DNA of 64,000 nucleotides from an uncultured Eubacteriales bacterium (GTDB lineage: Bacteria; Actinomycetota; Coriobacteriia; Anaerosomatales; JAAXUF01): positions 2,920-66,919 of the forward strand of contig CAYMAN010000005.1 of assembly GCA_964388455.1 (NCBI GenBank), written 5' to 3'. Shown piece by piece: positions 1-50,553 of the stretch (position 1 is the first letter of the stretch; every line of letters begins with the position of its first letter). A program made the translations under genes and the position numbers. Under the pieces are notes generated by a model, which made no database searches, had not been told where the DNA came from, and worked only from the letters and a program-made list of their open reading frames with translations.

Positions 1-1947
1 GCCGATGATCCAGTTCGTGACGGCACCGGTGATGTAGGAAGCGGAGTCCGTGTACGCCGTGAGGATGGTCGAGTTCGCCAGCCCGATGATGTTGGTGTCA
101 ACACCCGGGTTGCCGAGCTTGCCGACCACGACACCGAGCGCAGGAACATGCAGCTCAGCGAGACCCTCGCGGAGCAGTGCGACAGCGAGGTCCGCACCGA
201 CCATCTTGGGATCGAGGCCGTTGCCCGAAACGTGGACGTAGTCCGCGTAGTCGGCCAGGCCGAACGGGGTGAGATCCACGCTGGTGGCAAGCGCAACGTT
301 GTCCTTGAACAGGCCCATGATGAACATGCGAGCCATGGGACCGCCTTCGGCCGAGTTGCCGTTCCAGCGCGGAGCCTTGAGCCAGCTGTACTTCGAGGCA
401 TCGCCACGAAGCGGGATGGTGCGGTTGACCACGTGCGGGTCCGACACACCGTTGGCGGGGTACCCGGCTGCGACGGCAGCGGGTGACGTGGTGTCATACC
501 GCGCAAACGTGCAGTCCTCACGCAGGTTGGCGTACACATCAGCCGTGTTGATCGACTGAGCAGCGGCGGCGGGCGTCATGCCGGGCTTGTAGCCACGGGC
601 GAGAGCGAGCGAGCCGTCGGACTGCGGGAACGCGCCCCATGAGAGGAACTTCTTGATGCCGGCGCCGTAGCCGGAGCCGCCGTTGTTCACATTGTCGAAC
701 GGAGTGTAGAGCGCCCCGAGCGCAAGAACCAACGGTACGTACTCCTTGACGATGAACTCTCCGACCTCAGCGATCATGGCACGGAACTTCGTGCACTTGA
801 CCGTCAGGTTCTCGGTGTGGTCTGTGGTGACTCCACCGGCGACAAAGGTTGAGGTCATCGGCATACGACCTGCGAACAGCGCGCCTGCCTCGAACGTGAG
901 GCGACGGATGCGCAGTGCCTTGATGTACTGGTTGATGACAGCCGACCACAGGTCAGTCGAGAAGCCGTTGTCTTCGTCCTTCAGAGGAAGAACGCCGGTA
1001 CCGGCTCCACCATCAGTGCCGTGACCCGCCGAGAGCAGCAGCGGGTGATAGTAGCTGGTGTCGAAGTACGGAGTCCACGGCGCCATGTTGGGGCCCTGAA
1101 CGTAGCTCGGCGCAGCCAGGTGATAGAAGTGCGTGATGCTCGACATCAAGTACTCCGCAGCAAGCACAAGGTTGCGGATGTGCACCGCCTTGGCGGGCAC
1201 GCCCTTACCGTTGGCGCCGGGGGCACCGATCATCGGTGTCTGGAAGTTGTCGTTGTAGCCGTAGACCGACTCAACGGCGAACATGGCCGTGGTGCCGTGG
1301 GGTACGGGGCACACGCCACAGATGCGCTGAACGAACGTGATCGCATCGTTAGGGTTGCGGCCGAGCAGGAAGTTCTCGAAGCCACGCCACAGGTTTCCGT
1401 GAACGTCGGCTTCGGTCACGAGACCGTCGGCACCCGTCGTGAGCTTGACGCCGAGGTGCCCCTCGATGCGGGAGATCGGATCGACCTCCACCTCACCGGA
1501 GCTGAGAATTCCAGCCATCACGGAAATCGCGCGAGTGGCGCGGAATTCTGCGCCCAGCGACACATCCGTTGCATCGACGAAATCAGCAGCGAACGTGTAG
1601 GTACCTGCGGAAGCACCAGCGGCAAAAGTCACGCGAAGGTTTCCGGTGACATTCGCACCGCCGGCGATTGGGACGACGTCGTTCGGGGGCGGGTAGTTCG
1701 GATACGTGCCGAAGAGCGATGAACCCACGAGGGTAACCGGAAGCGCCTCCCAGACACCTGCATTGTTCACCGTGTCTTCAAATTCCATGCTCACAAGTCC
1801 GGCGGCGAGCCCGCTGCCGGCGATTGAGAACTGGAACTTGCCGAGAACGCTGGCTACGTCCGTGTTGGTGACAGTAACGCTCGTAACAAGCGGCGTACCT
1901 TTCACAAACGGCTTGTTAAAGCCATTGAGAACGTAAGTGAATCCCAT
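1..1947 (-). CDS. [NiFe]-hydrogenase large (catalytic) subunit; 3' end lies outside the window; carries a ~150-aa N-terminal extension
   Basis: Absent from the ORF track because it runs off the window. My translation starts at ATG 1947 (SD GAGGAGG upstream): MGFTYVLNGFNKPFVKG... The conserved DPISRIEGHLG sits at about aa 156, followed by the Ni-binding motif QRICGVCPVPHG. The gene lies directly downstream of the small-subunit gene. Confidence 0.85.
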   Translation of the reverse strand, partial: MGFTYVLNGFNKPFVKGTPLVTSVTVTNTDVASVLGKFQFSIAGSGLAAGLVSMEFEDTVNNAGVWEALPVTLVGSSLFGTYPNYPPPNDVVPIAGGANVTGNLRVTFAAGASAGTYTFAADFVDATDVSLGAEFRATRAISVMAGILSSGEVEVDPISRIEGHLGVKLTTGADGLVTEADVHGNLWRGFENFLLGRNPNDAITFVQRICGVCPVPHGTTAMFAVESVYGYNDNFQTPMIGAPGANGKGVPAKAVHIRNLVLAAEYLMSSITHFYHLAAPSYVQGPNMAPWTPYFDTSYYHPLLLSAGHGTDGGAGTGVLPLKDEDNGFSTDLWSAVINQYIKALRIRRLTFEAGALFAGRMPMTSTFVAGGVTTDHTENLTVKCTKFRAMIAEVGEFIVKEYVPLVLALGALYTPFDNVNNGGSGYGAGIKKFLSWGAFPQSDGSLALARGYKPGMTPAAAAQSINTADVYANLREDCTFARYDTTSPAAVAAGYPANGVSDPHVVNRTIPLRGDASKYSWLKAPRWNGNSAEGGPMARMFIMGLFKDNVALATSVDLTPFGLADYADYVHVSGNGLDPKMVGADLAVALLREGLAELHVPALGVVVGKLGNPGVDTNIIGLANSTILTAYTDSASYITGAVTNWIIG

Positions 1948-1967
1948 CTGCTATCCTCCTCTCTTTC

Positions 1968-3320
1968 TTATCGAACGATGAACGGCAGGAAGCTGTCAGG
2001 ATATCCGGCTTCCGTGCAGCCCATGCAGGGGGCTCCGCCGGCGACACAGTTGCCGCCCTTGGCGCCGTGCACGGTCTGAATGCCGTAGTCCCATGAAGCG
2101 TTGTTGGTCGGCTGCTGGCCGTTCCAGCCGTGAGCAGCACACAAGGTCATGGTCTGCATGCCCTTGCAGCCAAGAAGCTGCAGGCAACCCGGATCACCGG
2201 ACTTGGCGGCGAACTTGCCGTCGAGGAAGTCCTGGTAGCGGGTACAGAACGCCCCGTGCAGAGTCTGGCCGTAGACAGCCTTGAGACGACGCTGGCTGTC
2301 GACCGCAGCGCCGTTGATGCTGCCGTCACTCTTCAGAATACCCAGAGGGCCGTTGGCCGCAGTTGCTGCACCGGGACCATTGGTGAAGTCAACGAGCCAC
2401 GCGACGACCGTGAGGATGAACCACCACGGGTTGGTCGGGCAACCGGGAACCGCAACGACCTTGTTCTTGGCAAGTGAACCTCGGTGCTCGAGGAACTGGT
2501 ACGTCCCCATCGCTCCGGTCTGACCTTCGCCGAGAAGCGGAGACACGCAGGCGGGGTATCCGCCAAAGCATGCGCACTGGCCGATCGGGATGACCGCAGC
2601 GCACTCTGCCTGCGTCGCAAGCTCGAAGACGACGTCGTCGAACTCCAGTTCGTGTGGCGTCGGCTCGTTGGGGGTGCCATCGACACCGATCGAGCACCAC
2701 GGTGCGGCACCCGTTGCATCCCAGTATCCGCCCAGTTCCTTGGGCTGAATCGCACCCTCGACGATGAGCACAAACGGCGCACCGGGGGTGTCCATGCTGT
2801 CCTTGAGCCACTGGTAGGCCAAGTCCGAACCCATGCCCATGATCGTCTCATGGTACTGAAGGTCGATGAAGTCGATCAGAACGTCCGCGACATCGATGAT
2901 GTACGGATCGTCATCGTTTGCGACAGCGTTGAAGTCCGAACCCGTGACGCTGCCGGTCTTGCTGATGGTGCGGTGACCGTACGGATGAGTAGTATCGCCG
3001 TAGGGATCGGAGCCGAGCACGTGTGCTCCGCTGCCATCTCCTCCCACCGCAAGGTCAAGCGCCGCAACGGTCGTATAGCTAGCGCCCTCGATAGCTTTAC
3101 CGGTGGCGTTCTCAAACAGGCTGAGCAGAGATACCGAACAGCCGGTGCACTCAGCGCCATGCACCCAGACCACCTTCGGCTTCGTGGTCCAAGATGCACC
3201 CGCCCATGCGGAACCATGGGCAAACGCCTCGCCGACCTTTGCAAGGTCGAGCTGGCTCATGCCCATGGCTGCAGCCAAGGTTCCCAGCCGAGTAACAAAC
3301 TGACGTCTTGTTATCGCCAT
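1968..3320 (-). CDS. [NiFe]-hydrogenase small subunit, Tat-exported, no C-terminal membrane anchor
   Basis: Twin-arginine signal MAITRRQFVTRLGTLAAAMGMS; cluster motifs HGAECTGCSVS and CVAGGAPCMGCTEAGYPDSF. ATG 3320 (SD GAAGGAGG ~10 nt upstream) is preferred over the track start 3341. Confidence 0.9.
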   Translation of the reverse strand: MAITRRQFVTRLGTLAAAMGMSQLDLAKVGEAFAHGSAWAGASWTTKPKVVWVHGAECTGCSVSLLSLFENATGKAIEGASYTTVAALDLAVGGDGSGAHVLGSDPYGDTTHPYGHRTISKTGSVTGSDFNAVANDDDPYIIDVADVLIDFIDLQYHETIMGMGSDLAYQWLKDSMDTPGAPFVLIVEGAIQPKELGGYWDATGAAPWCSIGVDGTPNEPTPHELEFDDVVFELATQAECAAVIPIGQCACFGGYPACVSPLLGEGQTGAMGTYQFLEHRGSLAKNKVVAVPGCPTNPWWFILTVVAWLVDFTNGPGAATAANGPLGILKSDGSINGAAVDSQRRLKAVYGQTLHGAFCTRYQDFLDGKFAAKSGDPGCLQLLGCKGMQTMTLCAAHGWNGQQPTNNASWDYGIQTVHGAKGGNCVAGGAPCMGCTEAGYPDSFLPFIVR

Positions 3321-3717: not shown

Positions 3718-5220
3718 CTAGGACCTGGACCCAGAACCGTCCTTGGGCGCCCCGAACCGGTTGATGAACTCGAGGTGATCCACGGTCGGGACCTCGAGCA
3801 CCCGTCCGATACGGCGCAGTTCGCCACTCTCGGTGCAGAAGAGTCGCGCGCGTTGCGCGATCGACATCACGATCGCGTCCGACTCCGTGAGCTCATAGCG
3901 ATCCTTGAGCGCCTGAGAGTCCGACGGCGAATGCTCGACGGGATTCAGCAGCTCCTCCATGTTCGCGCGACCCTGAATCAGCCCGCGCAGCAGCTCGTAA
4001 TCCTCGAGCGTGACCTCCCAGCGCACTCGACGCTGAATCATGCGCTCAGCTTCCTCAGCGGCGATCATGGCGGTCACGAAGTCAGCGGTGGCGAAGAAGC
4101 GACGCTTGCGGAGGAGCAGGAGCAGCGGCAGAAGGAGGAGGGGCGTCAGGCAAAGAGTCCAGCCGGTGGCCGTGGTCGGAACAGGAATCGGGTTGGCAAC
4201 CGAGGGCCATCCCCATACCTGGATGCGTCCGTTGTTACTGTCGGTTATGAAGATCTTGCGCTTGGAGTCGATGGATACATCGTTGGGGTAGTTGAACTGG
4301 CCTTCCAAGACACCCTTTGCACCAAAGGTCAGGACCTTCTCGGAGGTCGAGGAGTCCCAGATGGTGGCGTCGTGGGCGAGTGTGTCAACGACTACCAGGC
4401 GTAGCGGCTCCTCAGGGTCAAGTTTGGGAAGGAAGGCCAACCCGCGCGGAAGACCCTGGGTAACCTGCATGCGCTTGAACTCGCCTCGGCGGCTAAAGAC
4501 CTGAATGCGACGATTGTTGGAGTCGGCGACCCATACCTCGTCGCCGCGGACCTTGACGGAGTTGGGGAACTGGAAGACGGACTCACCCTGGGTCGGATCA
4601 TTGATCATGCCAAACGTCCCGACGCTGCGGTTGAACGCTCCGTCGGGACGGAAGATCAGCAGGCGGTGCCCGTTGAGAATCTCAGTGACGTAGAGCGTCC
4701 CATCAGGTGCGAACGCCAGAGCGAGCGGTGCCCACTGAACACCCTTGGGAACCTTGATCGTGGGCAGCTGATCCTTGGGAAGCTTGGGATCGAAGACCCG
4801 AAGGAACTTCCCCTCAGAGCTGAAGATGGCGATGCTTCGCGTGCGGCGATCGCTCACCCACAGTTCACCGGTCTTGGGATGCTTTGCGACGTAGAGCGGC
4901 ACGACCAGCTTGCCCTTACCCCACGAGGCGATCTTGGTGCCGGTCTTGGTGAACACGTCGAGCACGCCGCGACGGGAATCCGTCACGTATACCCGATTCC
5001 CGCTCACGAGAACGCCCAACGGACGGACCAGTCTGTCCTGACCCTCGCCACTGAAGGAATACAGGTACTGCGGCATGGGAAGCAGATCCGCCTCGTTGAC
5101 CTGAATGTCGATACCCAACGACCTGGTCGAGCGATAGTTCACGAACGCAGCTGCGAGCAACGCAAGGAGTATGACGAGTACGACGATCGCGATGATTTGG
5201 CGCATCCGCTTACGGGACAT
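3718..5220 (-). CDS. Bitopic membrane protein: TM, NHL-repeat beta-propeller, TM, ~135-aa PIN-like C-terminal domain (paralog A)
   Basis: N-terminal TM IIAIVVLVILLALLAAAF. NHL-type blades include VYVTDSRRGVLDVF, LWVSDRRTRSIAIF, VWVADSNNRRIQVF and IFITDSNNGRIQVW. A second TM (TLCLTPLLLLPLLLLL) is followed by RKRR. SD AGGAGGAA precedes the start. Confidence 0.8.
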   Translation of the reverse strand: MSRKRMRQIIAIVVLVILLALLAAAFVNYRSTRSLGIDIQVNEADLLPMPQYLYSFSGEGQDRLVRPLGVLVSGNRVYVTDSRRGVLDVFTKTGTKIASWGKGKLVVPLYVAKHPKTGELWVSDRRTRSIAIFSSEGKFLRVFDPKLPKDQLPTIKVPKGVQWAPLALAFAPDGTLYVTEILNGHRLLIFRPDGAFNRSVGTFGMINDPTQGESVFQFPNSVKVRGDEVWVADSNNRRIQVFSRRGEFKRMQVTQGLPRGLAFLPKLDPEEPLRLVVVDTLAHDATIWDSSTSEKVLTFGAKGVLEGQFNYPNDVSIDSKRKIFITDSNNGRIQVWGWPSVANPIPVPTTATGWTLCLTPLLLLPLLLLLRKRRFFATADFVTAMIAAEEAERMIQRRVRWEVTLEDYELLRGLIQGRANMEELLNPVEHSPSDSQALKDRYELTESDAIVMSIAQRARLFCTESGELRRIGRVLEVPTVDHLEFINRFGAPKDGSGSRS

Positions 5221-5276
5221 GTACTGCGTTCCTCCTGGATCGTCACGGCGTACGCCGCAGTGGCCATTCGAGCGGT

Positions 5277-6317
5277 TTACTTGGCTCCGAGCTCAGCCAA
5301 CATGTTCTTCAGAGCGGTGTCGTCGGGCAGGGTAGCCAGCGCGGCCTTGACCACTTTCTGGGCACCGGCTGTGTCGCCGTCGGCCTTGAGCACTTCTGCG
5401 TGGAAGATGACGGCGTCTACGTTCTCGGGGTCCAGTGCCGTCGCCAACAGCGCTGCATCGATGGCGTCCTTGAGTTGACCCGCCTTCAGCCGGGCACGAC
5501 CGTCTTCAACCGCCTGCTTCGAGGTACCAAGCTTCTTCAGCGCATCGACGGGCTGGTCCTGCTCGGGTGCCAGGTCGGCAGCCTTGCGGAGATGAATAGC
5601 GGCGTTGATCTTGTCGCCTTGATCGAGCAGGATCATCCCGTAGAGGTAGTGCGCCTCAGGATAGTTGGGATCGAACGCGAGCGCGGCGTTGAGTTGCTTG
5701 ACCGCCGCCACGTCCTCCCCCATACCGCGCAGAGACTGCGCGAGGAGGTAGTAGGTGTCCGAGGCGTCCTTGCGGATTCGCAGCGCTCCCTTGAAGTAGC
5801 CCGCGGCATCCTCGTAGCGTCGCTGACTCAGCGCGATCTCGCCCAGATGGAAGAGAGCCTGCTCGCGGCGCTCGTTCATCGCCTCGAACTGAGTCGCCTG
5901 CGTAAGCTCGACGACTTTGGTGAAGTACTTCTCGGCGGGGCCGTACTCCTTGTTTTCCATTGCGATGATGCCCAGGTCGAGGTAGGCGCCCGTGTGGTTC
6001 TTGTCGAGCTTCACTGCGATCTGGAACTGCTCGGCTGCCGGCTTGAGCTGGCCGGCTGCGGCGAGTGCCTCCCCGAATCGGACGCGTGCGGCCGCACTAT
6101 TGGGGGACTTTCTGACCACCGCCTCGATATCCTTGATCGCGCGCTGCGCGGGAGTTGCGGTGAGCTCTGCCTGCCTCCCCTGCCACACGGAATAGCCGAG
6201 AAGGGCGCCGAGGCCTATGACCGCGGACACGAGAACGATGATGACGATGCGAAGGATGCCGTCGGCGCCTTCAGGCGAGCGCTTCAATCGGCGTGTTGCA
6301 GGCGCGTTCTCACTCAT
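5277..6317 (-). CDS. Membrane-anchored TPR-repeat protein (paralog A)
   Basis: Single N-terminal TM (ILRIVIIVLVSAVIGLGALLGY) followed by tandem TPR-like helix pairs, e.g. AVKLDKNHTGAYLDLG and ALAFDPNYPEAHYLYG. ATG 6317 (SD TAAGGA) is preferred over the track TTG 6323. Confidence 0.75.
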   Translation of the reverse strand: MSENAPATRRLKRSPEGADGILRIVIIVLVSAVIGLGALLGYSVWQGRQAELTATPAQRAIKDIEAVVRKSPNSAAARVRFGEALAAAGQLKPAAEQFQIAVKLDKNHTGAYLDLGIIAMENKEYGPAEKYFTKVVELTQATQFEAMNERREQALFHLGEIALSQRRYEDAAGYFKGALRIRKDASDTYYLLAQSLRGMGEDVAAVKQLNAALAFDPNYPEAHYLYGMILLDQGDKINAAIHLRKAADLAPEQDQPVDALKKLGTSKQAVEDGRARLKAGQLKDAIDAALLATALDPENVDAVIFHAEVLKADGDTAGAQKVVKAALATLPDDTALKNMLAELGAK

Positions 6318-6455
6318 GCACAAGTCCTTACCCGTGACGTCGTACGCGCTGGAGCCTGCCGGGGCTCACATGGGGCGCGAAGACTGCTGACTGACAATAC
6401 CTGCGGTGCCAAAGTGCCGTCAACACGACGACGCCTGGCGACACGCAGGACTCAC

Positions 6456-10119: not shown

Positions 10120-11010
10120 CTACACCTCCCCGCCGGTCACGGCGTCTGCTTCGTTCTTGGCTCTGCGTGAGGATATCGCCATCAGGCCACCGACTACAAG
10201 CGTCGGAAGCACGACGGCCTTTGCGAGCGAGCCAGTAAGCATGCCACTCACCATCGGAGCGACATGGTCCTCGATGAACGGATCCGCCTTGGGCGGAGCC
10301 AAGAGCGTCTTGCGACTCGCCCAGAACATCGAGTCACCACCGATGACGTTCACGGTGCCGTCGGCGAAGGTGTAGCCGTTGGCGGGATCCTGAACGTATG
10401 CGGCGATGTTGGCGCGAGTGTCCCACATCATGGCCTTCGCAGGACACGTTGAGACGCAGGCCGGCTCGTGAGCGCGACCGGGCGACGCAGCGATCTCGGC
10501 GGCGGTTGCACGGGTCTGCAGGGGCGGAAGGCCTGAGCCTGCCACATCCGCATCGGAACCGGCGCGACCGGCGCACAGGATGCACTTGTTCATCAGCGTG
10601 GACTCATTGCCGATGTAGGGCTTACCGATCTTGGGATAGCCGCCGCGCTGGCAGTTAACCTGGCACGGATACTGACCAAAACGGTCCTTGCACGCTGCCG
10701 GATCACAGAGGTTCGGATCCACGGCAACGGCGCCTGTACTGGGATTCCAGGTCAGGGCAGCCTTGCCGCTCGCGTCCTTGACGGGACACGCACGGGCGCA
10801 AGGAGCGTCGACGCAGTGCCAGCACGAGAACCGAATGAACGGGCCCATGTCGACACGCTTCTGGCTCTTGATCGTCACACGCTGATCATACGCAACGTTG
10901 TGAACGCCGATCGTCTCGGCGCGGATGTTCCACTCGCGCTTACAGGCAACGACACAGCCATTGCACCGCATGCACTTGTCCACATCTTGCAGAATTGCCA
11001 TCACAGTCAT
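10120..11010 (-). CDS. 4x[4Fe-4S] ferredoxin-type electron-transfer subunit (FdnH/DmsB-like) with C-terminal TM anchor
   Basis: Cys clusters CMRCNGCVVACK, CWHCVDAPCARACP, CILCAGR and CVSTCP. C-terminal helix VVLPTLVVGGLMAISS. SD GGGAGGTG. Confidence 0.85.
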   Translation of the reverse strand: MTVMAILQDVDKCMRCNGCVVACKREWNIRAETIGVHNVAYDQRVTIKSQKRVDMGPFIRFSCWHCVDAPCARACPVKDASGKAALTWNPSTGAVAVDPNLCDPAACKDRFGQYPCQVNCQRGGYPKIGKPYIGNESTLMNKCILCAGRAGSDADVAGSGLPPLQTRATAAEIAASPGRAHEPACVSTCPAKAMMWDTRANIAAYVQDPANGYTFADGTVNVIGGDSMFWASRKTLLAPPKADPFIEDHVAPMVSGMLTGSLAKAVVLPTLVVGGLMAISSRRAKNEADAVTGGEV

Positions 11011-11023
11011 CAGTCACACCTCC

Positions 11024-14000
11024 CTACATCTTCTTGATACGGCAGAGGCAGATCTTGTACTCAGGAATCAAAGTGTTTGCATCCCAGGCATCGATGGTGA
11101 GGTCGTTTGCACGCGAGCCGGTTGAGAGGCCCTTCTCACCCCAGTGCCATGGAATCGCGACTACACCGACGCCTACACGCTGGTTGGTGCTCTGTCCAAC
11201 GCCCACCTTGGCGCGCCAGCCCGCTCCGTAAGGAAGAAGCTTCTGGTCTGCAAGGCCCTCGGTGCGCTTCGTGATGATCTGGACCAAGTCACCATCCTGG
11301 ATGCCGTGGGCACGCGCATCGATGGAGTTGAGCTCGATCCACGGCTCGGGCTCGAGCTCATGGTTGTACGCGTTGTTTCGCGTGATCGGGCCACCCTGGA
11401 AATGCTCGACGCAACGAATCGTGGTGAGCATGAGCGGGTAGGTGTCCACGGTACCGATGGGCGACCGCGCGTCTGAAGTGGTGATCAGGTTCGCGGAGGT
11501 GCCGGTTGTGCCGTTCTTGCCCCACGTGAGCGCGAGCGTAGGCTCTGGGGTCTCGTACGGCTCGGTGTGGCCGGGGAAGCGGCCGGTGAGCACGTGCGGC
11601 GCGGTCGAGCCACCGATGCTGGGCAGATCCTTGAGGTTGTGGTGCTTGCGATAGTTGTTGTTCGCATAGTCCATGAGATCCGTGCTGAGCGTCGAGAAGA
11701 GTCTCGAGACGCGGTCCGGACCCTGGAACCCGTCCATCTGATCGCCAGGAACCTCAGCTGTGGCATCGACCGCTGCATTGTTGTTGTACAGAACGCGACG
11801 GTTGACCAGCCAAGAGTAGCCCCACTTGTGGAAGCCATAGGACTTGTAGGGATCTTCCTGTGAGCGACTCTTCGAGCGATTGGCAACTGTCCATGCAGTG
11901 TAGTCGGCACCGAGACGCGACTTGTTGAGAGTAGAGCTGTACGCCTCGTGGTAGATCCAGATCGTTCCGCCACCGGCGTTTGAGACGACGGTGCACATCT
12001 GGCGATACAACTTCTCCGCGACGTACTCGGCGCCCGTCATCGCGCCCGTCTTGATGCCACCCTCGTGGGTGAATCCGGACTCGGTCGCGTCCTTGAAATC
12101 ATCGACGGTAGCCGTTGCGTTCGGCGTCCAGCCGTACTGGCGACCGAACAGTGAGTCATACACCGATACGAAGGTGCCAGGTGTCGCACCGTCCGTGCTT
12201 GCTGCGAACGCTGCGCCCTTAGTCCATCCGAGACCGCCGGATGCCTTGGCCGTGGTCCACTTGTTCTCGATGTGCGAGAACACGCTCTTCTCGTCAAGCT
12301 TCTTGGCGAGACGAAGCAGCAGCTCGAGATCGGTCTTGCTGTTGCCGCTGGGGAGTTTGGCCTGATAGCGCCACTGCAGTACGCGACCGGAGTTGGTTGC
12401 GCTACCGGCCTGCTCGACGTGCGCGGCAGCCGGAATCAGGTACGTTACTGCACCATCCTTACGCGGAATAGCGGCCGTCTCAGTCTCGAAGACATCCTGT
12501 ACGACCAACAGATCGAGGTTCTTGAGGCCGTCGCGCACCACACCCTGGTTGGGCTCGGTCACGGCCGGGTTCTGGCCAAGAATGAACGCAGCCTTCGTGC
12601 CGCCTGCGACCATCTTGCGGAACATGGAGATGTGATCATCGCCGTTACCCTTTGGCCAGAGGTCGTACACAGCGTTGACCTTCGTGCGCCTGTCGGCGAT
12701 GGCTGCCGTGGCGGCGTCATCAACGTAGTCGTCGGCACCAGCGGCGTAGTTCGGAGCGAACCACCGCATGGTCATGTTGTAGAAGCCCTTGGACTGCAGG
12801 TTCAGGGGTCCCGTGCCTACCAAGCCCCATGTGCTACGAGTGAACGCGTCATCGTACGGGTTGGTGCCCATGTTCATGCGGTTGCCCCACAGGCCGTCCA
12901 TGTACTTACCGAACGCATTGACGTCATTCTTAGTCGAGTCCGAGTGACCAGCGCTCATCACCGTCGGGTTGCCCGAGTACGCAGGGATGTTGCCGAACAG
13001 CAGACCCATATCCGTGGAGCCCTGAACGTTGTGGATTCCACGAAGGGCGTTGATTCCGCCGCCCGCACGACCCGCGTTACCCAGAATGGTCTGGAGGTTG
13101 GCGAAGCCCTTGACGTTCTGCGAGCCACACGTGTGCTGGGTGATTCCCATTGCGTAGAGAATCGTGGTCGCACGATAGCCGGATGCGTAGGGCGTCTTGA
13201 CAAGACCCGTCAGCGGATCCGCGTCGCCTGCGCCGGTGTAGCTAGCCATGCGGCTGTGCTTGATCATTTCTTCGGCAACCGCAACAAGCTCGGCCGGGGT
13301 ACACCCGCAGATATCGGCAACAGTGGCCTCGTCATACGGTGCGACCTGGGCTTTGAGCTTCTGGAAAACACTGTCCGCATCGGTGATGTCGTTCGCGGCA
13401 ACAGGAAGCGCCGTGAACTGGAATGCAGCGTCCCACCAGCCCATACCGAAGTACAGGTTTGCCAGGCTATCTGAATACCAGAGTGCCCAGCTGGTACCGA
13501 CCTGGGCGACCACTGGACGCGCGGTGCCTGCGCTGGCGGTCACGCCCGGCAAACCCTTGATGTAACCGGTCAATCCGGCAGCCACAACAGGCCGCGTGAA
13601 GGTCAGGCCATCGGCGGAAGTTGCCGTGCTGATCTTCTGGATCTGATCCGTCAAGCTGTACCCAACGTACAGGAGCTGGTATGCAGCGCCGTTCTTGACA
13701 ACCATCGGGTGCATGACGCGATAGCTATCCCAGCCAGTCGCCGCAGGTGAAAGAGCCGGTACGGGACCGCCGACGACAGCCTCGAACGAGGCGTTGAAGG
13801 TGGTTGCGTCCCAGGTACCGGGCGCGTCCGTCGTGAAGCCCTGATACAGCTTGTACTCAGCGGCTGGATTCCCACGACCCTGGAAGTAGAGGCGATATGT
13901 CGCTCCATCCTTCAGGACCATAGGACGGTCGTACTTGTAGATGGTCATGCCCGCACTGTCGGTGACAGGTGTCGTCACCGGATCGAGGATGACGGCTTCG

Positions 14001-15526
14001 GCGCCCCATGTCAGGCCATCAGCAGAGCTGCGAATGGTGAGTTTACGATCCGCATCGTTGTTGACCATGTAGTACACGCCGGACTCAAGCCAGACGAACG
14101 GTGCATCGGCGCCGTCGGAGACGTTGGTATCGACACCCGTCGTCCACGTGTTGCCGTCCTTGGAGGTCGCGAACTGGATGTTCGTCTCCGCGCCTACAGC
14201 CGAGACGTACCACATCTTGTACTTCTTGGCGGCGTCAGTCTCCGCTGCGTCAAACACAACTGTCGGTGTGTTAGCGGCATATCCGGTTGCAGCAGCCTTG
14301 TTGTAGCGCTGATAGTCGCTGCCCACCGAGTTGATCTTCAGGCGTGCATCGGTGTACTTGGAGCGATCCGCGGCCGTAGCTACGCCGCCCCTAGCACCGT
14401 CGGGGATGAACGTCTGCGTCTGCTTCTGGTTAAGGAAGGCGTCGAAGTGAGTCTTGTACTTCTCCGTTGCAGCTGCGCCGTCCGCGATGTTGTTGATGAT
14501 GTAACGAATCAGGCCGTTCTGGAACGCGATGTCTGTTCCGGGACGGATACGCACATACATGTCCGCCTGCGTCGCGGTGCGCGTCTTGCGCGGATCGATG
14601 ACGATCATCTTCGCCGCGGGCTTTGCACTTATGTCGCCGTTAGGCAGAACCTGGTTGGCGGTCTTGGCGCGGTTGATGTGCGCCATGCACGCCGGATGGT
14701 TCTCTGCCGGATTAGCTCCCCACGCGATGACAAGCGTCGAGTTCGCGATATCTGTCCAGCTGTTGGTCATTGCTCCACGTGCGAATGCGGCGGCCAGACC
14801 GGCCACCGTTGACGAGTGTCATATTCGCGCCTGATGCTCGACGTTGCTGGTACCGAAGTTCGCGATGAGTTTGCGGTACAGATAGTTGCCTTCGCTGTTC
14901 ATGTGCGAACTACCGAAGAACGCAACGCCCTTACTGTTGTAGCCGTTCGCGGCCGACGGTGCTGAAACACCGGCGCCACCAACGTTGTCACGTGCGGCCT
15001 TGAGGCCGTCTGCGATCTCATCCATCGCCTGGTCTAGCGGCATCGCCGTCCACGCGGTGTTAACGCCTGATGCAGTTCCTGTGGACTTGTACGCGACGCC
15101 GTTAGGAGCAGCCGGGTCGGCAAGGAAGGCATTGCTGCCTGCAGGGTGGTTGAGACTGCCGCCGAGCTCAGGCGAGCCAGCTTCCCACGCACCGATACGA
15201 CGAGAGTTGTTCACGAGCTGAAGAGAGCCCGCACCCTTGGAGCACAGACCGCCGGTATTGAAGACGGACTCGAAATCGCCATAGATGTCGACGACCTTGC
15301 CAGATGATTTCTCAACGACTACTCGCTGCCCGCAACTAGCGGAACAGTAAGGACAGGTGGTTGTGGTGATCGTGTAGGCGGCCATTCCCTCGTACGCCGC
15401 TGCCTTTGCAGGGTCGTATGCGAAGTTGAGACCGCAACCAACCACCGCTGTTGCAGCAGCGGATGACTTCAGAAAGTCTCTACGTGAGAGTCCTGAGGCC
15501 CCCTGCCCGGTGTCTTTAGTTGCCAT
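11024..15526 (-). CDS. Tat-exported selenocysteine-containing molybdo/tungstopterin oxidoreductase, formate dehydrogenase (FdnG)-like, 1500 aa with internal beta-propeller-like insertion
   Basis: Track ORFs 14819..15526 and 11024..14806 are in the same frame and separated only by TGA 14819-14821. The joined reading is ...NVEHQARI-U-HSSTVAGLAAAFARGAMTNSW, which matches the FdnG/FdhF Sec context. Tat signal SRRDFLKSSAAATAVVG. N-terminal FeS motif CPYCSASCG...C. C-terminal pterin-binding region ...LTTIRCVEHFQGG... Confidence 0.85.
14789..14807 (-). promoter_or_regulatory. SECIS-like hairpin 11 nt 3' of the UGA codon
   Basis: GGUGGCC-GGUCU-GGCCGCC forms a 7-bp stem with one G-U pair. The GGUCU loop resembles the E. 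coli fdhF SECIS apical loop. Confidence 0.65.
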
Positions 15527-15705: not shown

Positions 15706-15792
15706 CTAGAACCCATATTGGACAGCCCTCTTCCCTTACCCGGGGAAACACGAGCATGGGCGAGCCGTGGTGACCGGGGCTCGCCGTACTCG

Positions 15793-15893
15793 CAGTCTCC
15801 TTTCCAAGTGGGGAGGCGCCACCGTTTCCAGTGACACCCCGGCCCGACAACCATGGCGCGGATGCGCTGTAGGTCCGAAGGGCTCGGAGACTG
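15793..15893 (-). ncRNA. Moco/Tuco-riboswitch-like element in the FDH-operon leader
   Basis: An 8-bp closing stem CAGUCUCC...GGAGACUG encloses CUCCGAGCC, an internal GGAAACGG loop, GCGCCUCCCC and UUGGAAAGG. These are the conserved blocks I recall from the Moco RNA motif. A paralogous element lies at 34340-34442. Confidence 0.6.
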
Positions 15894-15948
15894 TCTTATT
15901 CGGTTGAATCAAGCACGATCTACGCGTTCACGACCCTGTGAGGTCGAG

Positions 15949-16046: not shown

Positions 16047-17543
16047 CTAGCGTTCATTCTGCCGATCGTTTGCGCCGAAATATCGTGCAATGAACTGCTC
16101 CGCATCAAATGTGCCAATCTCCGCTAAACGCGCAAGGCGCCGGAGATCCAAATCCTCGGTGCACAGACCCCGAGCACGATCAGCAAGTGCAAGGAGAATC
16201 GCCTCGCGCTCACCGATGTCGAGCTTCTCGCGCATCGCACGCACATCGGACTCCGAGTACTCCTCGGCCTGGATAAGCGTGCCAAGATCGACGTCGCCAA
16301 CGATGCGGCCCGCGTATAGCGCGTGGTCCATCTCAGGACAGAGCAGACGCAGCTTGCGCTTGGAGGCCACTTCGGCGATCACATCGCGCTGAATGAGCAC
16401 CTCGACGAACTCCGGTGAGACGACTAGGCGGACCTTTCTGAGCATCAACGGAATCAGGAGCAGAAGGAGCGGCAGGAGACACAGCGCCCAACCCCACGGC
16501 GTGCTGGGGGTGACAACTCTCGGGATGGGAGCAACCGGCCAGCCCCATACCTGGACCTGATCGTTCTCGCGGTCGGTGACGTAAATGCGGCCGTTCTTAT
16601 CGAGCGCCACATCTGCGGGATAGTTGAACTGACTGGGACCAAATCCCTTGGAACCGAACTGAACCAGCTGCTTGCCATCGAGATCGTAGATGTCCACGAC
16701 ATGTGCGAGAGCGTCGACCGCGAACAGATGCTTGGAATCCACAGCCAGACCGCGAGGAATACCCGATGAGTCGATGATGCGGATCAATTCGCCGGTTGGC
16801 TTGAACACCTGAATGCGACGGTTGTTGGAATCCGAGACGTAGACAGCGCCGTTCTTCGCCACAGCGATACCACTTGGAAAGAAGAACTCGCTCGGCGAAT
16901 CGATCACCGAGTTGGCCTGAACTGTCTTGCCGAACGTGACCGTTCGGCTGCCCTCGGTGGAGAAGAAGATGACTCTGTGTCGGTCCGTTGCGCCGACATC
17001 AGTGACTCTCGGCGCACCTGATGTGTCAAAGGAGATTGCCAGTGGAGCCCAACTGAACTTGGGTTCACCCTCCGGCGTGAACGTCCTCAGGTACTTACCC
17101 TCGAGGTCGTAGACGTAGATGGTCCTGAAGCGGCGCTCGGTTACCCACACCTCGGAGCCCTTGATGGCGACGTTCACTGGCGAGCGAAGTCGACCCTTGC
17201 CAGTGGTGCCGAACGAGAAGAGATACCTGCCGCGCGGAGCGAACACGCTCATCCGCCGATTGCCCGCGTCAACGACGTACACGCGGCCATCCGCGCCGAT
17301 ATCGACTCCGGCAGGGCGTCTGATCTGACCCTTGCCTTCGTCTCCGGTGATGGAGAACAGATACTGCGGCGCTGTCAACGCCGCTTGTGGCTCTCCCAAC
17401 TTCACAGACGGCAGGCTCTGGTTCCTCACAAAGTAGAACGTCGCATATGAAAGCAACGCGAGCAGCAAGAGGAGCAGAGCAAGCAGGATGACACGTTTGC
17501 GCTTCTGACGACGAGTTAGAGGCTGACGCGTGCTACTTGCCAT
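16047..17543 (-). CDS. Bitopic membrane protein: TM, NHL-repeat beta-propeller, TM, PIN-like C-terminal domain (paralog B)
   Basis: Same architecture as 3718..5220. Blades include VYVVDAGNRRMSVF, VWVTERRFRTIYVY, VYVSDSNNRRIQVF and IYVTDRENDQVQVW. TM2 is ALCLLPLLLLLIPLML, followed by RK. The start overlaps the upstream TPR gene by 11 nt. Confidence 0.8.
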   Translation of the reverse strand: MASSTRQPLTRRQKRKRVILLALLLLLLALLSYATFYFVRNQSLPSVKLGEPQAALTAPQYLFSITGDEGKGQIRRPAGVDIGADGRVYVVDAGNRRMSVFAPRGRYLFSFGTTGKGRLRSPVNVAIKGSEVWVTERRFRTIYVYDLEGKYLRTFTPEGEPKFSWAPLAISFDTSGAPRVTDVGATDRHRVIFFSTEGSRTVTFGKTVQANSVIDSPSEFFFPSGIAVAKNGAVYVSDSNNRRIQVFKPTGELIRIIDSSGIPRGLAVDSKHLFAVDALAHVVDIYDLDGKQLVQFGSKGFGPSQFNYPADVALDKNGRIYVTDRENDQVQVWGWPVAPIPRVVTPSTPWGWALCLLPLLLLLIPLMLRKVRLVVSPEFVEVLIQRDVIAEVASKRKLRLLCPEMDHALYAGRIVGDVDLGTLIQAEEYSESDVRAMREKLDIGEREAILLALADRARGLCTEDLDLRRLARLAEIGTFDAEQFIARYFGANDRQNER

Positions 17544-18537
17544 TGTTCACCTTTTCCAGACCGGCCTTCGCCGACGCATTGTTGGGTTCGATCACCAGGA
17601 CGCGCTGATACATCTCTGCGGCATGCTTCTTGGCACCCGTCTTGACCGCCAGGTCGCCGAGCAGGATGAGTGCCTCGACGTTCTGTGGTTCAAGAGCCAC
17701 CGCGATGCGTGCCTCGATCAGCGCGGCTTTGGGGTCCTTGGCTGCCTTGGTCTTGGCCGCGGCGAGGCGATCACTGAAGGGCCCGAGCTCATCCAGTGCA
17801 TCCTGCGGCAAGTCCACATTGGGGGCCGCGGCGATCGACGTGCGCAGGTGTTCTGCGGCCCCGGCCTTGTCGCCGTCCTTGAGGAGGAGGAGTGCGTAGT
17901 CGTAGTTCGCCTCGGGCATCTTGGGGTCGAACAGCAGCGTGTTCTCGAGCTCCTCGCGGTACTTTGAATCAGAACCCAGCTTGCTGTAGGTGAAAGCCAA
18001 TGCATAGTGCGTGTCCGAGGCGTCGCGTCGGAGAAGAATGGCCTTCTTGTAGTAGTTCGCGGCCTCCTCGTACTCCTTCTGCTCCATGAGCGCAGTGCCC
18101 AAGTAGAAGTACGCGATCTCGAGTTGCGCATCCGGACCGCTCTTGTGCTTGGGCTCGAGTATCGCGATCACTCGGCGGAAGTACGTCTCCCCCTCGGCGA
18201 ACTGCTTGCGCTGCAGGGCGAGAAAACCGATGCCTGAGATCGCAGGCGCGAAGTCCTTGCTGATCTTGAGTGCGGCCTCGTACTGCACCACCGCGTCCTT
18301 GTCCCGACCGGCGACCGCGAGAGCCTGCGCGAGCTGCATGCGTGCGTCGATGTCATTGGGGTTCTTGCGAACCCTGGCCTCGACAGCAGCGACCGCGCGC
18401 GCAGCGGGCGTTGAGTCAACGATCTGACGGCCCTGAGCCCAGACCGAATAGCCAAGATATGCGCCAAGAACAAGCACCACAACGGCTATGGCTGCTATGA
18501 CGGCGTCAAGCGGGCGGATGTTTCTGACAGTGGACAC
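17533..18537 (-). CDS. Membrane-anchored TPR-repeat protein (paralog B)
   Basis: N-terminal TM AVIAAIAVVVLVLGAYLGY followed by TPR-like repeats, e.g. ALKISKDFAPAISGIGFLAL and TLLFDPKMPEANYDYALLLL. GTG start with SD AAGGGAG. Confidence 0.75.
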   Translation of the reverse strand: MSTVRNIRPLDAVIAAIAVVVLVLGAYLGYSVWAQGRQIVDSTPAARAVAAVEARVRKNPNDIDARMQLAQALAVAGRDKDAVVQYEAALKISKDFAPAISGIGFLALQRKQFAEGETYFRRVIAILEPKHKSGPDAQLEIAYFYLGTALMEQKEYEEAANYYKKAILLRRDASDTHYALAFTYSKLGSDSKYREELENTLLFDPKMPEANYDYALLLLKDGDKAGAAEHLRTSIAAAPNVDLPQDALDELGPFSDRLAAAKTKAAKDPKAALIEARIAVALEPQNVEALILLGDLAVKTGAKKHAAEMYQRVLVIEPNNASAKAGLEKVNNGK

Positions 18538-33442: not shown

Positions 33443-34336
33443 CTACTCGGCGTTCGGGACGAACAGCTGCTGTCCGAACTCCGCCACGCCGTACTCGCCG
33501 ATGACCTTCTGGCCATCAGCCGACAGGATCCAGTCGTTGAACGCCTGTGCGCCGACCTGGTTCTTGGCATCGGTCACCACGATGACGCCGTACTGGTTGA
33601 GCAGTCCCTTGTCCTTCTCGTACAGCACGACCAGGTCGGGATTGGCCTTCTGCGACGACAGGTAGGTGGCACGGTCGACGAGCGTGTAGGCGGCCTTGTC
33701 GTTGGCGACCTTGAGCGTCTCGCCCATGCCCTGACCGGTGGAGAGGTACCACGCGTCCGCATCAGGCGTCGGCGTGGGTGTCACACCGGCGTTCGCCCAG
33801 AGCTTCAGTTCCTTCTTGTGGGTTCCGGAATCGTCGCCACGAGAAACGTATAGTCCCTTGCCGGACTTGCCGGACTTCTGGATTGCGAGCATCGCAGCGG
33901 TGGTATCAGCCGAACCCTTGATCGCAGCAGGATCGGACGCGGGACCCACCAGAACGAAATCGTTGTACATGACGCTCTTGCGCTCGACTCCGAAACCACC
34001 GGCCACGAACTTCTCTTCGTCCGCCTTGGCGTGCACGAGCAGCACGTCTGCGTCCTTGGTCTCGCCCAACTTGAGCGCTTCACCGGTACCGACGGCGATG
34101 ACCTTGACCTTGTACTCAGGATTGGCCTTCTCGAACGCAGGAATCAGCACGTCAAACAGTCCTGAATCCTGTGTCGAGGTTGTTGAGGCCAAGACGACAT
34201 CGCTTGTCGTCGGGGTCTCGGCGGCTATAGGCGCTTCGGCTTTCTGCCCGCAACCCACAAGCGCCAATACCAGTACGACGGCGAGCGAGATGCCCGCCAG
34301 GCGCCTCTTGCGAGGCGCGGCGTTCGGGTGGTGCAT
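33443..34336 (-). CDS. tupA: Tungstate-binding lipoprotein TupA
   Basis: Lipobox LALVGC. TupA-type motifs LASTTSTQDSGLFDVLIPAFEK, VGTGEALKLGETKDADVLLVHA and SRGDDSGTHKKE. Confidence 0.8.
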   Translation of the reverse strand: MHHPNAAPRKRRLAGISLAVVLVLALVGCGQKAEAPIAAETPTTSDVVLASTTSTQDSGLFDVLIPAFEKANPEYKVKVIAVGTGEALKLGETKDADVLLVHAKADEEKFVAGGFGVERKSVMYNDFVLVGPASDPAAIKGSADTTAAMLAIQKSGKSGKGLYVSRGDDSGTHKKELKLWANAGVTPTPTPDADAWYLSTGQGMGETLKVANDKAAYTLVDRATYLSSQKANPDLVVLYEKDKGLLNQYGVIVVTDAKNQVGAQAFNDWILSADGQKVIGEYGVAEFGQQLFVPNAE

Positions 34337-34339
34337 ATG

Positions 34340-34442
34340 AATCCCCTTTCCACCGGGAGGCAGGGCCGTTTCCGTGCCCTACCCTATCGGTCCGGCATCC
34401 TTGGCCCATCATGGGCGGTAGGCGTACCGGACTCGGAGACTT
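34340..34442 (-). ncRNA. Moco/Tuco-riboswitch-like element abutting the tupA start codon
   Basis: AAGUCUCCGAGUCCGG...CCUACC...GGUAGG...CACGGAAACGG...CUGCCUCCCGGUGGAAAGGGGAUUCAUAUG. The 3' block closely resembles the E. coli moaA leader as I recall it (GCCUCCC...UGGAAAGG...AUG). The SD lies inside the conserved GGAAAGG. Confidence 0.7.
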
Positions 34443-34484
34443 TGGCCGCGCGGGTGCGCGACGGATTCCAGCATAGCGCACGAC

Positions 34485-50456: not shown

Positions 50457-50553
50457 TGGCGGAAGCGTGTGCGAATCGAACACACCCGGGAGGCTCTTCA
50501 CCCCCCACACTGGTTTTGAAGACCAGGGGCCCCACCAGGAACCATCCGCCTCC
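50457..50553 (-). tRNA. selC: tRNA-Sec (anticodon UCA), 97 nt with encoded CCA
   Basis: Minus-strand sequence: GGAGGCGGAUGGUUCCUGGUGGGGCCCCUGGUCUUCAAAACCAGUGUGGGGGGUGAAGAGCCUCCCGGGUGUGUUCGAUUCGCACACGCUUCCGCCA. It has a 6-bp D-stem with a 4-nt loop, an anticodon loop CUUCAAA, a long variable arm (6-bp stem), a T-arm GUGUG-UUCGAUU-CGCAC, and a 7-8 bp acceptor. An upstream TTGACA-17-GACAAT promoter lies at 50563-50591 and a downstream hairpin at 50419-50439. Confidence 0.85.

Follow-up and report, generated by a model that had tools for sequence, protein, structure and literature searches.

An optional N-terminal beta-sandwich domain on the large subunit of a [NiFe] hydrogenase from an uncultured Anaerosomatales bacterium

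The 64,000-nucleotide stretch of contig CAYMAN010000005.1 analysed here (the window; assembly GCA_964388455.1) comes from an uncultured bacterium of the Anaerosomatales and encodes, on its minus strand, a [NiFe] hydrogenase whose large subunit carries about 145 residues in front of its catalytic domain. Comparison with homologs indicates that this extension is almost certainly a real and translated domain. It is predicted to fold as a beta sandwich, and its sequence marks it as a divergent member of an uncurated family of surface-protein modules with the signature LVGYFGPxxGFP. Its distribution is that of an optional, exchangeable and recombining cassette rather than a trait of the enzyme family. 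What is new here is an undescribed accessory domain of this kind on a known type of enzyme.

The genes and elements concerned are the following (positions in the window, all on the minus strand).

1..1497 (-): catalytic part of the large subunit, amino acids 151-649, cut by the window edge; contains RICGVCPVPH; matches PF00374 (E=3e-46) and, over amino acids 153-548, NF033181
1516..1518 (-): codon of the internal Met144, in the alignment column where extension-less homologs begin (MAN...), without a Shine-Dalgarno (SD) sequence
1516..1947 (-): N-terminal accessory beta-sandwich, amino acids 1-144, with 11 predicted strands and a short linker; divergent member of the LVGYFGPxxGFP family
1948..1967 (-): intergenic spacer of 20 nt, reading gaaagaGAGGAGGatagcag, with the SD sequence GAGGAGG 7 nt upstream of ATG 1947
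1968..3320 (-): small subunit, 450 amino acids, from ATG 3320; matches PF01058 and PF14720; twin-arginine signal MAITRRQFVTRL...AFA/HG

Start codon and translation of the extension

The large-subunit gene starts at ATG 1947-1945, 20 nt past the small-subunit stop (TAA, 1970-1968), and an in-frame TAG at 1953-1951 makes this ATG the earliest possible start. The reading frame leaves the window at its left edge, with 649 of about 815 residues present. The conserved RIEGH motif is found only at residues 160-164 (D156-P-I-S-R160-I-E-G-H164), and the matches to hydrogenase hidden Markov models (HMMs; Pfam PF00374, NCBIfam NF033181 and NF045518) begin at residue 151-153. No Pfam or NCBIfam model matched residues 1-150. 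The original prediction had placed the start at ATG 1947, behind the GAGGAGG sequence, and had named Met144 as an internal candidate that lacks an SD. All its coordinates proved correct, including the 20-nt distance from the small-subunit stop, the position of RIEGH and that of the Met144 codon, and the 20 nt before Met144 (gccactcgcgcgatttccgtg) indeed contain no purine-rich SD.

The 20-nt gap between the two genes is kept across all orthologous operons, those at loci L084, L085 and L086 included. The spacer and ribosome-binding site (RBS) are near-identical in the extension-bearing locus L001. In L003, the extension-less operon of P0007, they are identical to those of the window (gaaagagaggaggatagcagATG) and are followed directly by MANLPNIEVEVDPISRIEGH.

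A search with the 649-residue query retrieved 444 large subunits, mostly from metagenome-assembled genomes labelled Coriobacteriia, Actinobacteria or Actinomycetes. Among the best 120 of these, seven (P0001-4, P0010, P0024 and P0066) have a homologous extension of 144-160 residues before RIEGH, P0093 has an unrelated beta-helix of 320 residues at its N-terminus instead, and the remainder have RIEGH at position 10-31. A profile search added P0261, which is the ninth extension-bearing enzyme when that of the window is counted. Conserved sequence upstream of RIEGH, the lack of which in homologs had been named as an argument against the extension, is thus present in nine proteins. Conservation among orthologs holds in part: eight others have a homologous extension, but most relatives are without it, some of them with a catalytic domain about 85% identical and the same RBS. 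Some operons do have the extension and most do lack it; differences in gene calling do not account for the pattern.

Base composition gives a chance of roughly 0.02 that 143 codons stay free of stops at 64.5% GC. The open frame is exceptional, because 69 of 84 related hydrogenase loci have at most 40 open codons upstream of the DPxSRxEGH motif; in a scan of genome contigs, L004 was the sole extension carrier among the 80 matches listed. The open frame of the window also matches the conserved RBS and start exactly, and chance does not suffice to explain it. The ratio of non-synonymous to synonymous substitution rates (dN/dS), measured on pairs from the P0001/P0003/P0004 allele class and not on the window's own allele, is 0.20-0.23 in the extension and 0.15-0.16 in the catalytic part. 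Two scans of metagenome contigs yielded no close relatives of the window's own extension allele.

Alternatively, the extension might not be made at all, with translation beginning at Met144 (1518-1516) and the frame upstream of it left open by high GC content or by mis-assembly. Met144 falls in the very column of the start Met of the extension-less homologs (MAG.. in the window, MAN.. in the short forms), and long spurious reading frames are common at 64.5% GC. However, the alignment shows this Met-Ala match for the window's protein only. The eight other extension-bearing homologs, all from independent assemblies, have no Met in the Met144 column and therefore cannot make a short form. Moreover, it is ATG 1947, and not Met144, that stands behind a perfect SD and the conserved 20-nt spacer, and a start at Met144 would leave about 450 nt of non-coding DNA before it, unlike any sister operon. 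The dN/dS of about 0.2, the confident predicted fold and the match to the family HMM (E=1.5e-31) also speak for a protein domain. We thus consider the comparative data to have effectively refuted a start at Met144, which now seems extremely improbable, and agree with the original prediction on translation from ATG 1947. Met144 may be what is left of an ancestral start codon.

Fold, family and exchange of the domain

The original prediction had read the sequence of the extension as the alternating pattern of an immunoglobulin (Ig)-like or beta-sandwich domain and had suggested modelling residues 1-150. AlphaFold2, run on an alignment of eight extension sequences, returned an all-beta sandwich of 11 strands with a mean confidence (pLDDT) of 80.7 and a predicted template modelling score (pTM) of 0.77. 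The same sandwich is present in the full-length AlphaFold model of P0002 (pLDDT 86.8, pTM 0.84). The reading as a beta sandwich is thus borne out at the level of prediction. Foldseek searches of the Protein Data Bank (PDB) matched the model to generic beta-sandwich and Ig-like domains only, with TM-scores of 0.4-0.68. Among these were AvmM, the N-terminal domain of GH123, the hydrophobin BslA, the pilin BcpA, and domains of integrin and transglutaminase. The least confident part of the model is a Pro-rich loop.

The family assignment depends mainly on a profile built from the hydrogenase extensions (A2). Scored against 1.84 billion representative proteins, this profile matched 158 proteins at E<=1e-3, of which 35 reached E<=1e-10. 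The best 150 of the 158 matches, which served for all family counts, include a single hydrogenase. They hold between one and eight tandem copies of the domain, and 96 of the 150 begin with a hydrophobic stretch that resembles a signal peptide. Partner domains in several of them are the cell-wall-binding CWB2, the 'stalk' domain Cu_amine_oxidN1, DUF11, CARDB and Big_1. The family consensus reads ...F.Y.dG.W..LPLt..G..LVGYFGP..GFP...gY.ATt.FR.tF...G.Y...l.LvD.... The family HMM (A3) matches the window's reading frame over HMM positions 1-138 with the E-value given above. A3 was built from 30 sequences that include the extension of the window and six other hydrogenase extensions, and the independent support therefore comes from the A2 profile.

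The GYFGPxxGFP loop, the hallmark of the family, speaks against this assignment in one respect, since it is not kept in the window allele. The corresponding residues read TYPNYPPPNDVVPIAGG / FGTYPNYPPPNDVVPIAGG, with a Pro-rich loop in place of the hallmark. P0002 is likewise divergent and reads VGYYPPVGTPAPNN at this position, and the other hydrogenase alleles retain VGYFGPxxG. When the family alignment was used as a profile against PDB sequences, the sole match was a chance one to a nanobody (E=0.8), and Pfam scans of 30 family members gave just scattered sub-threshold matches to CARDB, Big and Filamin. The family, with its 158 representative clusters, is thus without a Pfam model and, by sequence, without a solved structure.

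The extension resembles the repeat modules of the surface proteins, which are distantly CARDB-, DUF11- or Big-like E-set domains, in its profile homology, in its length of about 120-140 residues and in its predicted beta-sandwich fold. It differs from them in placement. The surface-protein modules are internal, arranged in tandem and located behind a Sec-type signal, whereas the hydrogenase extension occurs once, at the very start of a subunit that has no signal. The domain appears to have been recruited and fused directly before the first strand of the catalytic core. A second copy was found neither in the window nor in the sister loci, and the idea of homotypic docking was dropped. Likewise, a fusion of an upstream gene was rejected as the origin of the extension, because extension-less operons hold no gene between the small- and large-subunit genes.

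The behaviour of the extension as a cassette is most apparent from comparison with the sister operons L084, L085, L086 and L003 in bins of 90 nt. Along the small-subunit gene as far as the start codon of the large subunit, most bins are 85-98% identical at the nucleotide level, save for the first one at the start of the alignment, and from the EVDPISRIEGH region onward most are again 85-95% identical. In between, the extension segment is 27-50% identical to its counterparts, and thus unalignable, and in L003 it is deleted. Between the window and P0001, the catalytic parts share 89% amino-acid identity with a synonymous divergence (dS) of 0.41, whereas the extensions share 29% with dS saturated. 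The GC content at third codon positions (GC3) is 0.65 in the extension compared with 0.81 in the remaining, catalytic part of the gene.

In a neighbour-joining tree of the catalytic parts, extension-bearing proteins interleave with extension-less sisters. The window's extension is nearest to that of P0002 (41% identity) and not to those of its catalytic-domain sisters P0001, P0003 and P0004 (about 30%). Extensions also occur in clades with catalytic domains only 51-61% identical to that of the window (P0024, P0066 and P0261). To account for the interleaved presence and the divergent alleles, recombination at one fixed site must have added, removed or replaced the extension more than once. Other inserts are found in related large subunits. 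P0093 (L088, 4496-7384), from a more distant lineage, carries its 320-residue right-handed beta-helix (PF13229) at the same site. P0067 has an insertion of about 200 residues (amino acids 360-561), and P0071 has insertions at amino acids 526-714 and 718-795 (about 270 residues).

These observations would also fit a mere passenger, that is a hypervariable exposed domain without a role in the hydrogenase, exchanged under diversifying pressure (for example from phages or predators) or tolerated as an insertion at a permissive site. The sharp boundaries, the presence/absence polymorphism, the deep divergence of alleles that extends to synonymous sites, and the lower GC3 agree with such an origin, as do the unrelated modules at the same or other permissive sites in P0093, P0067 and P0071 and the evident functioning of the extension-less sisters. 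However, the dN/dS of about 0.2 found inside an allele class is a sign that fold and sequence are kept by purifying selection and do not evolve neutrally, and the domain has been kept at the same position in lineages with catalytic domains only 51-61% identical to that of the window. We therefore regard a pure passenger as unlikely, although clearly less so than a start at Met144.

Enzyme class and possible role of the extension

The catalytic part is related to the periplasmic [NiFeSe]/Group 1a enzymes and is probably of the Cys type. It has the nickel-site motifs of a Group 1 large subunit (RIEGH at 160-164, RICGVCPVPH at 208-217), and its nearest solved structures are the [NiFeSe] enzymes 1cc1, 4kl8 and 5jsu (phmmer E~1e-66; target-normalised Foldseek TM-scores 0.85-0.87). 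Homology to them begins at query residue ~148-156, and residues 1-147 are covered by no solved hydrogenase. The window enzyme shares with the [NiFeSe] hydrogenases of Desulfomicrobium baculatum (1cc1/4kl8) and Desulfovibrio vulgaris Hildenborough (2wpn/5jsu) a small subunit that exports the large subunit by means of a twin-arginine translocation (Tat) signal, a c-type cytochrome as the likely electron acceptor, and, as read in its full-length homologs, a protein end in ...CAVH. In contrast to the [NiFeSe] enzymes, the full-length homologs of the window enzyme have Cys (DPCIACAVH) in place of selenocysteine, the N-terminal addition is a folded domain of about 145 residues and not a lipidated Cys, and the catalytic part has several extra insertions (about 670 residues compared with about 490).

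A dozen orthologs compared over their full length, including those 73-89% identical in the catalytic part, all stop exactly at DPCIACAVH, and this C-terminus is invariant or nearly so in an alignment of 74 sequences (A4). The selenocysteine motif DPUxxC of HysA was therefore not found in the orthologs, and NF045518 scored 222 against a cut-off of 780. Without a C-terminal maturation peptide, no endopeptidase step is expected, and a protease gene was not seen in the orthologous operons. The Group 1i operon in Anaerosomatales contains a cytochrome b subunit and a maturation endopeptidase (PMC9686372), whereas here a hexahaem cytochrome c gene lies downstream, with no adjacent gene for a cytochrome b or a protease. 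The possibility that the extension compensates for the missing peptide was dismissed, as the extension-less sisters lack the peptide as well.

The twin-arginine motif RRQF can be read directly in the small subunit, although its match to the Tat model TIGR01409 is marginal (E=0.008; 16.5 bits, with a curated cut-off of 16.7). The small-subunit orthologs, scanned for hydropathy, show no transmembrane segment and no C-terminal membrane helix. With its 450 residues, the small subunit exceeds those of [NiFeSe] enzymes by about 130. It has an insertion at about amino acids 78-150, after the first cluster-binding region (ATGKAIEGASYTT...DDDPYIIDV), with a weak BigA-like match; the match to NF045520 resumes at amino acid 142. 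The gene order, kept in the orthologous operons, is a TPR protein, an NHL-repeat membrane protein, the Tat small subunit, the large subunit and the hexahaem cytochrome c, which has a Sec signal and no membrane anchor. This order holds even in distant relatives.

Group 1 [NiFe] large subunits are regarded as compact catalytic subunits, with an N-terminus that is involved in maturation and assembly. Kwon et al. are said to have found in 2018 that the N-terminal tail of the immature large subunit contacts the nickel chaperone HypA; if so, a bulky N-terminal domain would not be trivial for maturation. To our knowledge, HycE of Group 4a is the only well-known case of an N-terminal domain fusion on a [NiFe] large subunit. 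In this subunit of the E. coli formate hydrogenlyase, residues 1-151 form an N-domain similar to NDUFS3/NuoC (PMC9474812). HycE is like the window enzyme in being a [NiFe] large subunit with a fused N-terminal domain of about 150 residues. However, the HycE N-domain is cytoplasmic, universal in its group and part of the architecture of the complex, whereas the extension described here is predicted to be all-beta and Ig-like, is optional, and sits on an exported enzyme of Group 1 type. The N-terminal ~150 residues of the window enzyme gave no Pfam or NCBIfam match that would indicate NuoC/NDUFS3 homology, and in full-text literature searches we found no earlier account of an exported Group 1 large subunit with an Ig-like domain at its N-terminus.

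Export by Tat as a folded heterodimer is established for hydrogenases, and is likely for the window enzyme as well. The view of the original prediction that the large subunit must be exported folded agrees with the Tat signal on the small subunit. As the large subunit itself has no signal peptide, the extension would have to fold in the cytoplasm and then cross the membrane with the heterodimer, hitch-hiking on the small subunit, to reach the outer face of the cell. There, it might act as a tether or adhesion module that holds the soluble hydrogenase, which has no anchor of its own, in the envelope or on an external surface, analogous to the N-terminal lipid anchor of [NiFeSe] large subunits. 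The extracytoplasmic location of the extension and its role in tethering or adhesion are what we infer from these comparisons. The joint statement, that the domain was recruited from secreted cell-envelope repeat modules of Gram-positive bacteria and serves as a tether or in adhesion, is our preferred reading, held tentatively and at slightly less than even chances.

Three considerations favour attachment. The relatives of the domain are exposed modules of secreted envelope proteins. The closest characterised enzymes are anchored via the N-terminus of the large subunit: according to PMC7349357 (citing Valente et al. 2007), this N-terminus carries the lipid membrane anchor of the D. vulgaris [NiFeSe] enzyme and lies opposite the distal Fe-S cluster. 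Finally, the extension is without cofactor ligands. It contains neither Cys nor His and so lacks the usual means of binding haem, an Fe-S cluster or Ni. A redox or metal-binding role was ruled out for the same reason.

The extension could instead be an adaptor that binds the co-encoded, secreted hexahaem cytochrome c, or the larger multihaem cytochromes nearby, and channels electrons to them. The gene for the Sec-exported hexahaem cytochrome follows the large-subunit gene in every orthologous operon, further multihaem cytochromes are encoded close by, and Ig-like domains often mediate contacts between proteins. Nevertheless, operons with and without the extension encode the same cytochrome, its sequence ends being highly similar, so that docking needs no such domain. 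The extension also diverges far more than the subunits that face the cytochrome, and in the [NiFeSe] enzymes the N-terminus of the large subunit is reported to be located opposite the distal cluster where acceptors dock (PMC7349357). Docking to the cytochrome thus appears rather improbable, a little more so than the passenger explanation. The original prediction had proposed a surface domain for docking to cytochromes or to the cell wall. Attachment to the envelope is the better supported of these two, given the occurrence of the family in secreted proteins, some of them with cell-wall-binding domains, and the N-terminal anchor site in [NiFeSe] enzymes, whereas docking to cytochromes is disfavoured.

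Several points weigh against a role as a tether. Extension-less sisters share the operon context (TPR protein, NHL membrane protein, small and large subunit, cytochrome), and since their enzymes evidently function, the domain is dispensable. Retention of the enzyme must then have another solution, for example through the NHL membrane protein. The module may also be a spacer or a variable exposed region and not an anchor, and wall binding in the family proteins is attributable to CWB2.

A broader variant of the attachment reading is that, in this clade, display modules such as Ig-like alleles, the beta-helix and lectin-like inserts are exchanged at a recombination hot-spot formed by the N-terminus, and by some surface loops, of the exported large subunit. 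The result would be a modular, surface-displayed hydrogenase with attachment specificities that are swapped between strains. Candidate targets would be the cell wall or surface layer, mineral or Fe(0) surfaces, and partner cells in interspecies H2 transfer. We consider this reading as a whole to be speculative, with perhaps one chance in five.

Neighbouring genes and implications

The window is rich in extracytoplasmic electron-transfer modules, and the features outside the hydrogenase genes proper are as follows.

3718-6323 (-) and 16047-18537 (-): paralogous gene pairs, each for a TPR protein and a membrane-anchored NHL beta-propeller protein of about 500 amino acids
8876-10114 (-): multihaem cytochrome c, 412 amino acids, Paired_CXXCH, MtrC/MtrF-like, downstream of the molybdoenzyme
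10120-11010 (-): 4Fe-4S dicluster protein, 296 amino acids, downstream of the molybdoenzyme
11024-15526 (-): two adjacent reading frames of 235 and 1260 amino acids, apparently one molybdoenzyme gene
15781-15900 (-) and 34328-34446 (-): two molybdenum/tungsten cofactor (Moco) riboswitches (Rfam)
50461-50553 (-): tRNA-Sec gene (Rfam, 72.8 bits)

The NHL protein at 3718-5220 has an N-terminal transmembrane helix and a second hydrophobic stretch before its C-terminal tail. Downstream of each TPR-NHL pair, a Tat-exported redox enzyme is encoded together with a multihaem cytochrome, and the pairs may serve such enzymes as scaffolds or anchors outside the cytoplasm.

The two frames at 11024-15526 appear to be joined across an in-frame TGA at 14819-14821. 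The 235-residue frame has a Tat signal and an Fe4S4 domain, the 1260-residue frame has molybdopterin domains, and together they look like a Tat-exported selenoprotein oxidoreductase of about 1,490 residues. The context of the TGA, EHQARI-U-HSSTVAGLAAAFARGAMTN, is typical of selenocysteine sites of the formate-dehydrogenase type. The hairpin GGUGGCC-GGUCU-GGCCGCC, 13 nt downstream of it, is similar to a selenocysteine insertion sequence, with an overall fold z-score that is not significant. One of the Moco riboswitches is located directly upstream of the putative selenoprotein molybdoenzyme operon. With a tRNA-Sec gene and a putative selenoprotein, the host uses selenocysteine elsewhere, although its hydrogenase is probably of the Cys type.

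For the hydrogenase, presence/absence and allele swaps of the extension within operons that are otherwise 85-98% identical amount to an unusually clean natural experiment. An N-terminal domain of about 145 residues has to suit both the Hyp-dependent insertion of the cofactor and the Tat export of the folded heterodimer. The extension also shows where a hydrogenase naturally tolerates a fusion, a site of possible use in enzyme display or electrode tethering. If the modular display of attachment domains were true, it would represent a cellulosome-like logic for a respiratory metalloenzyme that passes the Tat system fully folded. The host lineage is labelled Actinomycetota and taken as monoderm, and the extension illustrates a way in which such a cell, lacking an outer membrane, might keep a soluble extracytoplasmic redox enzyme in position.

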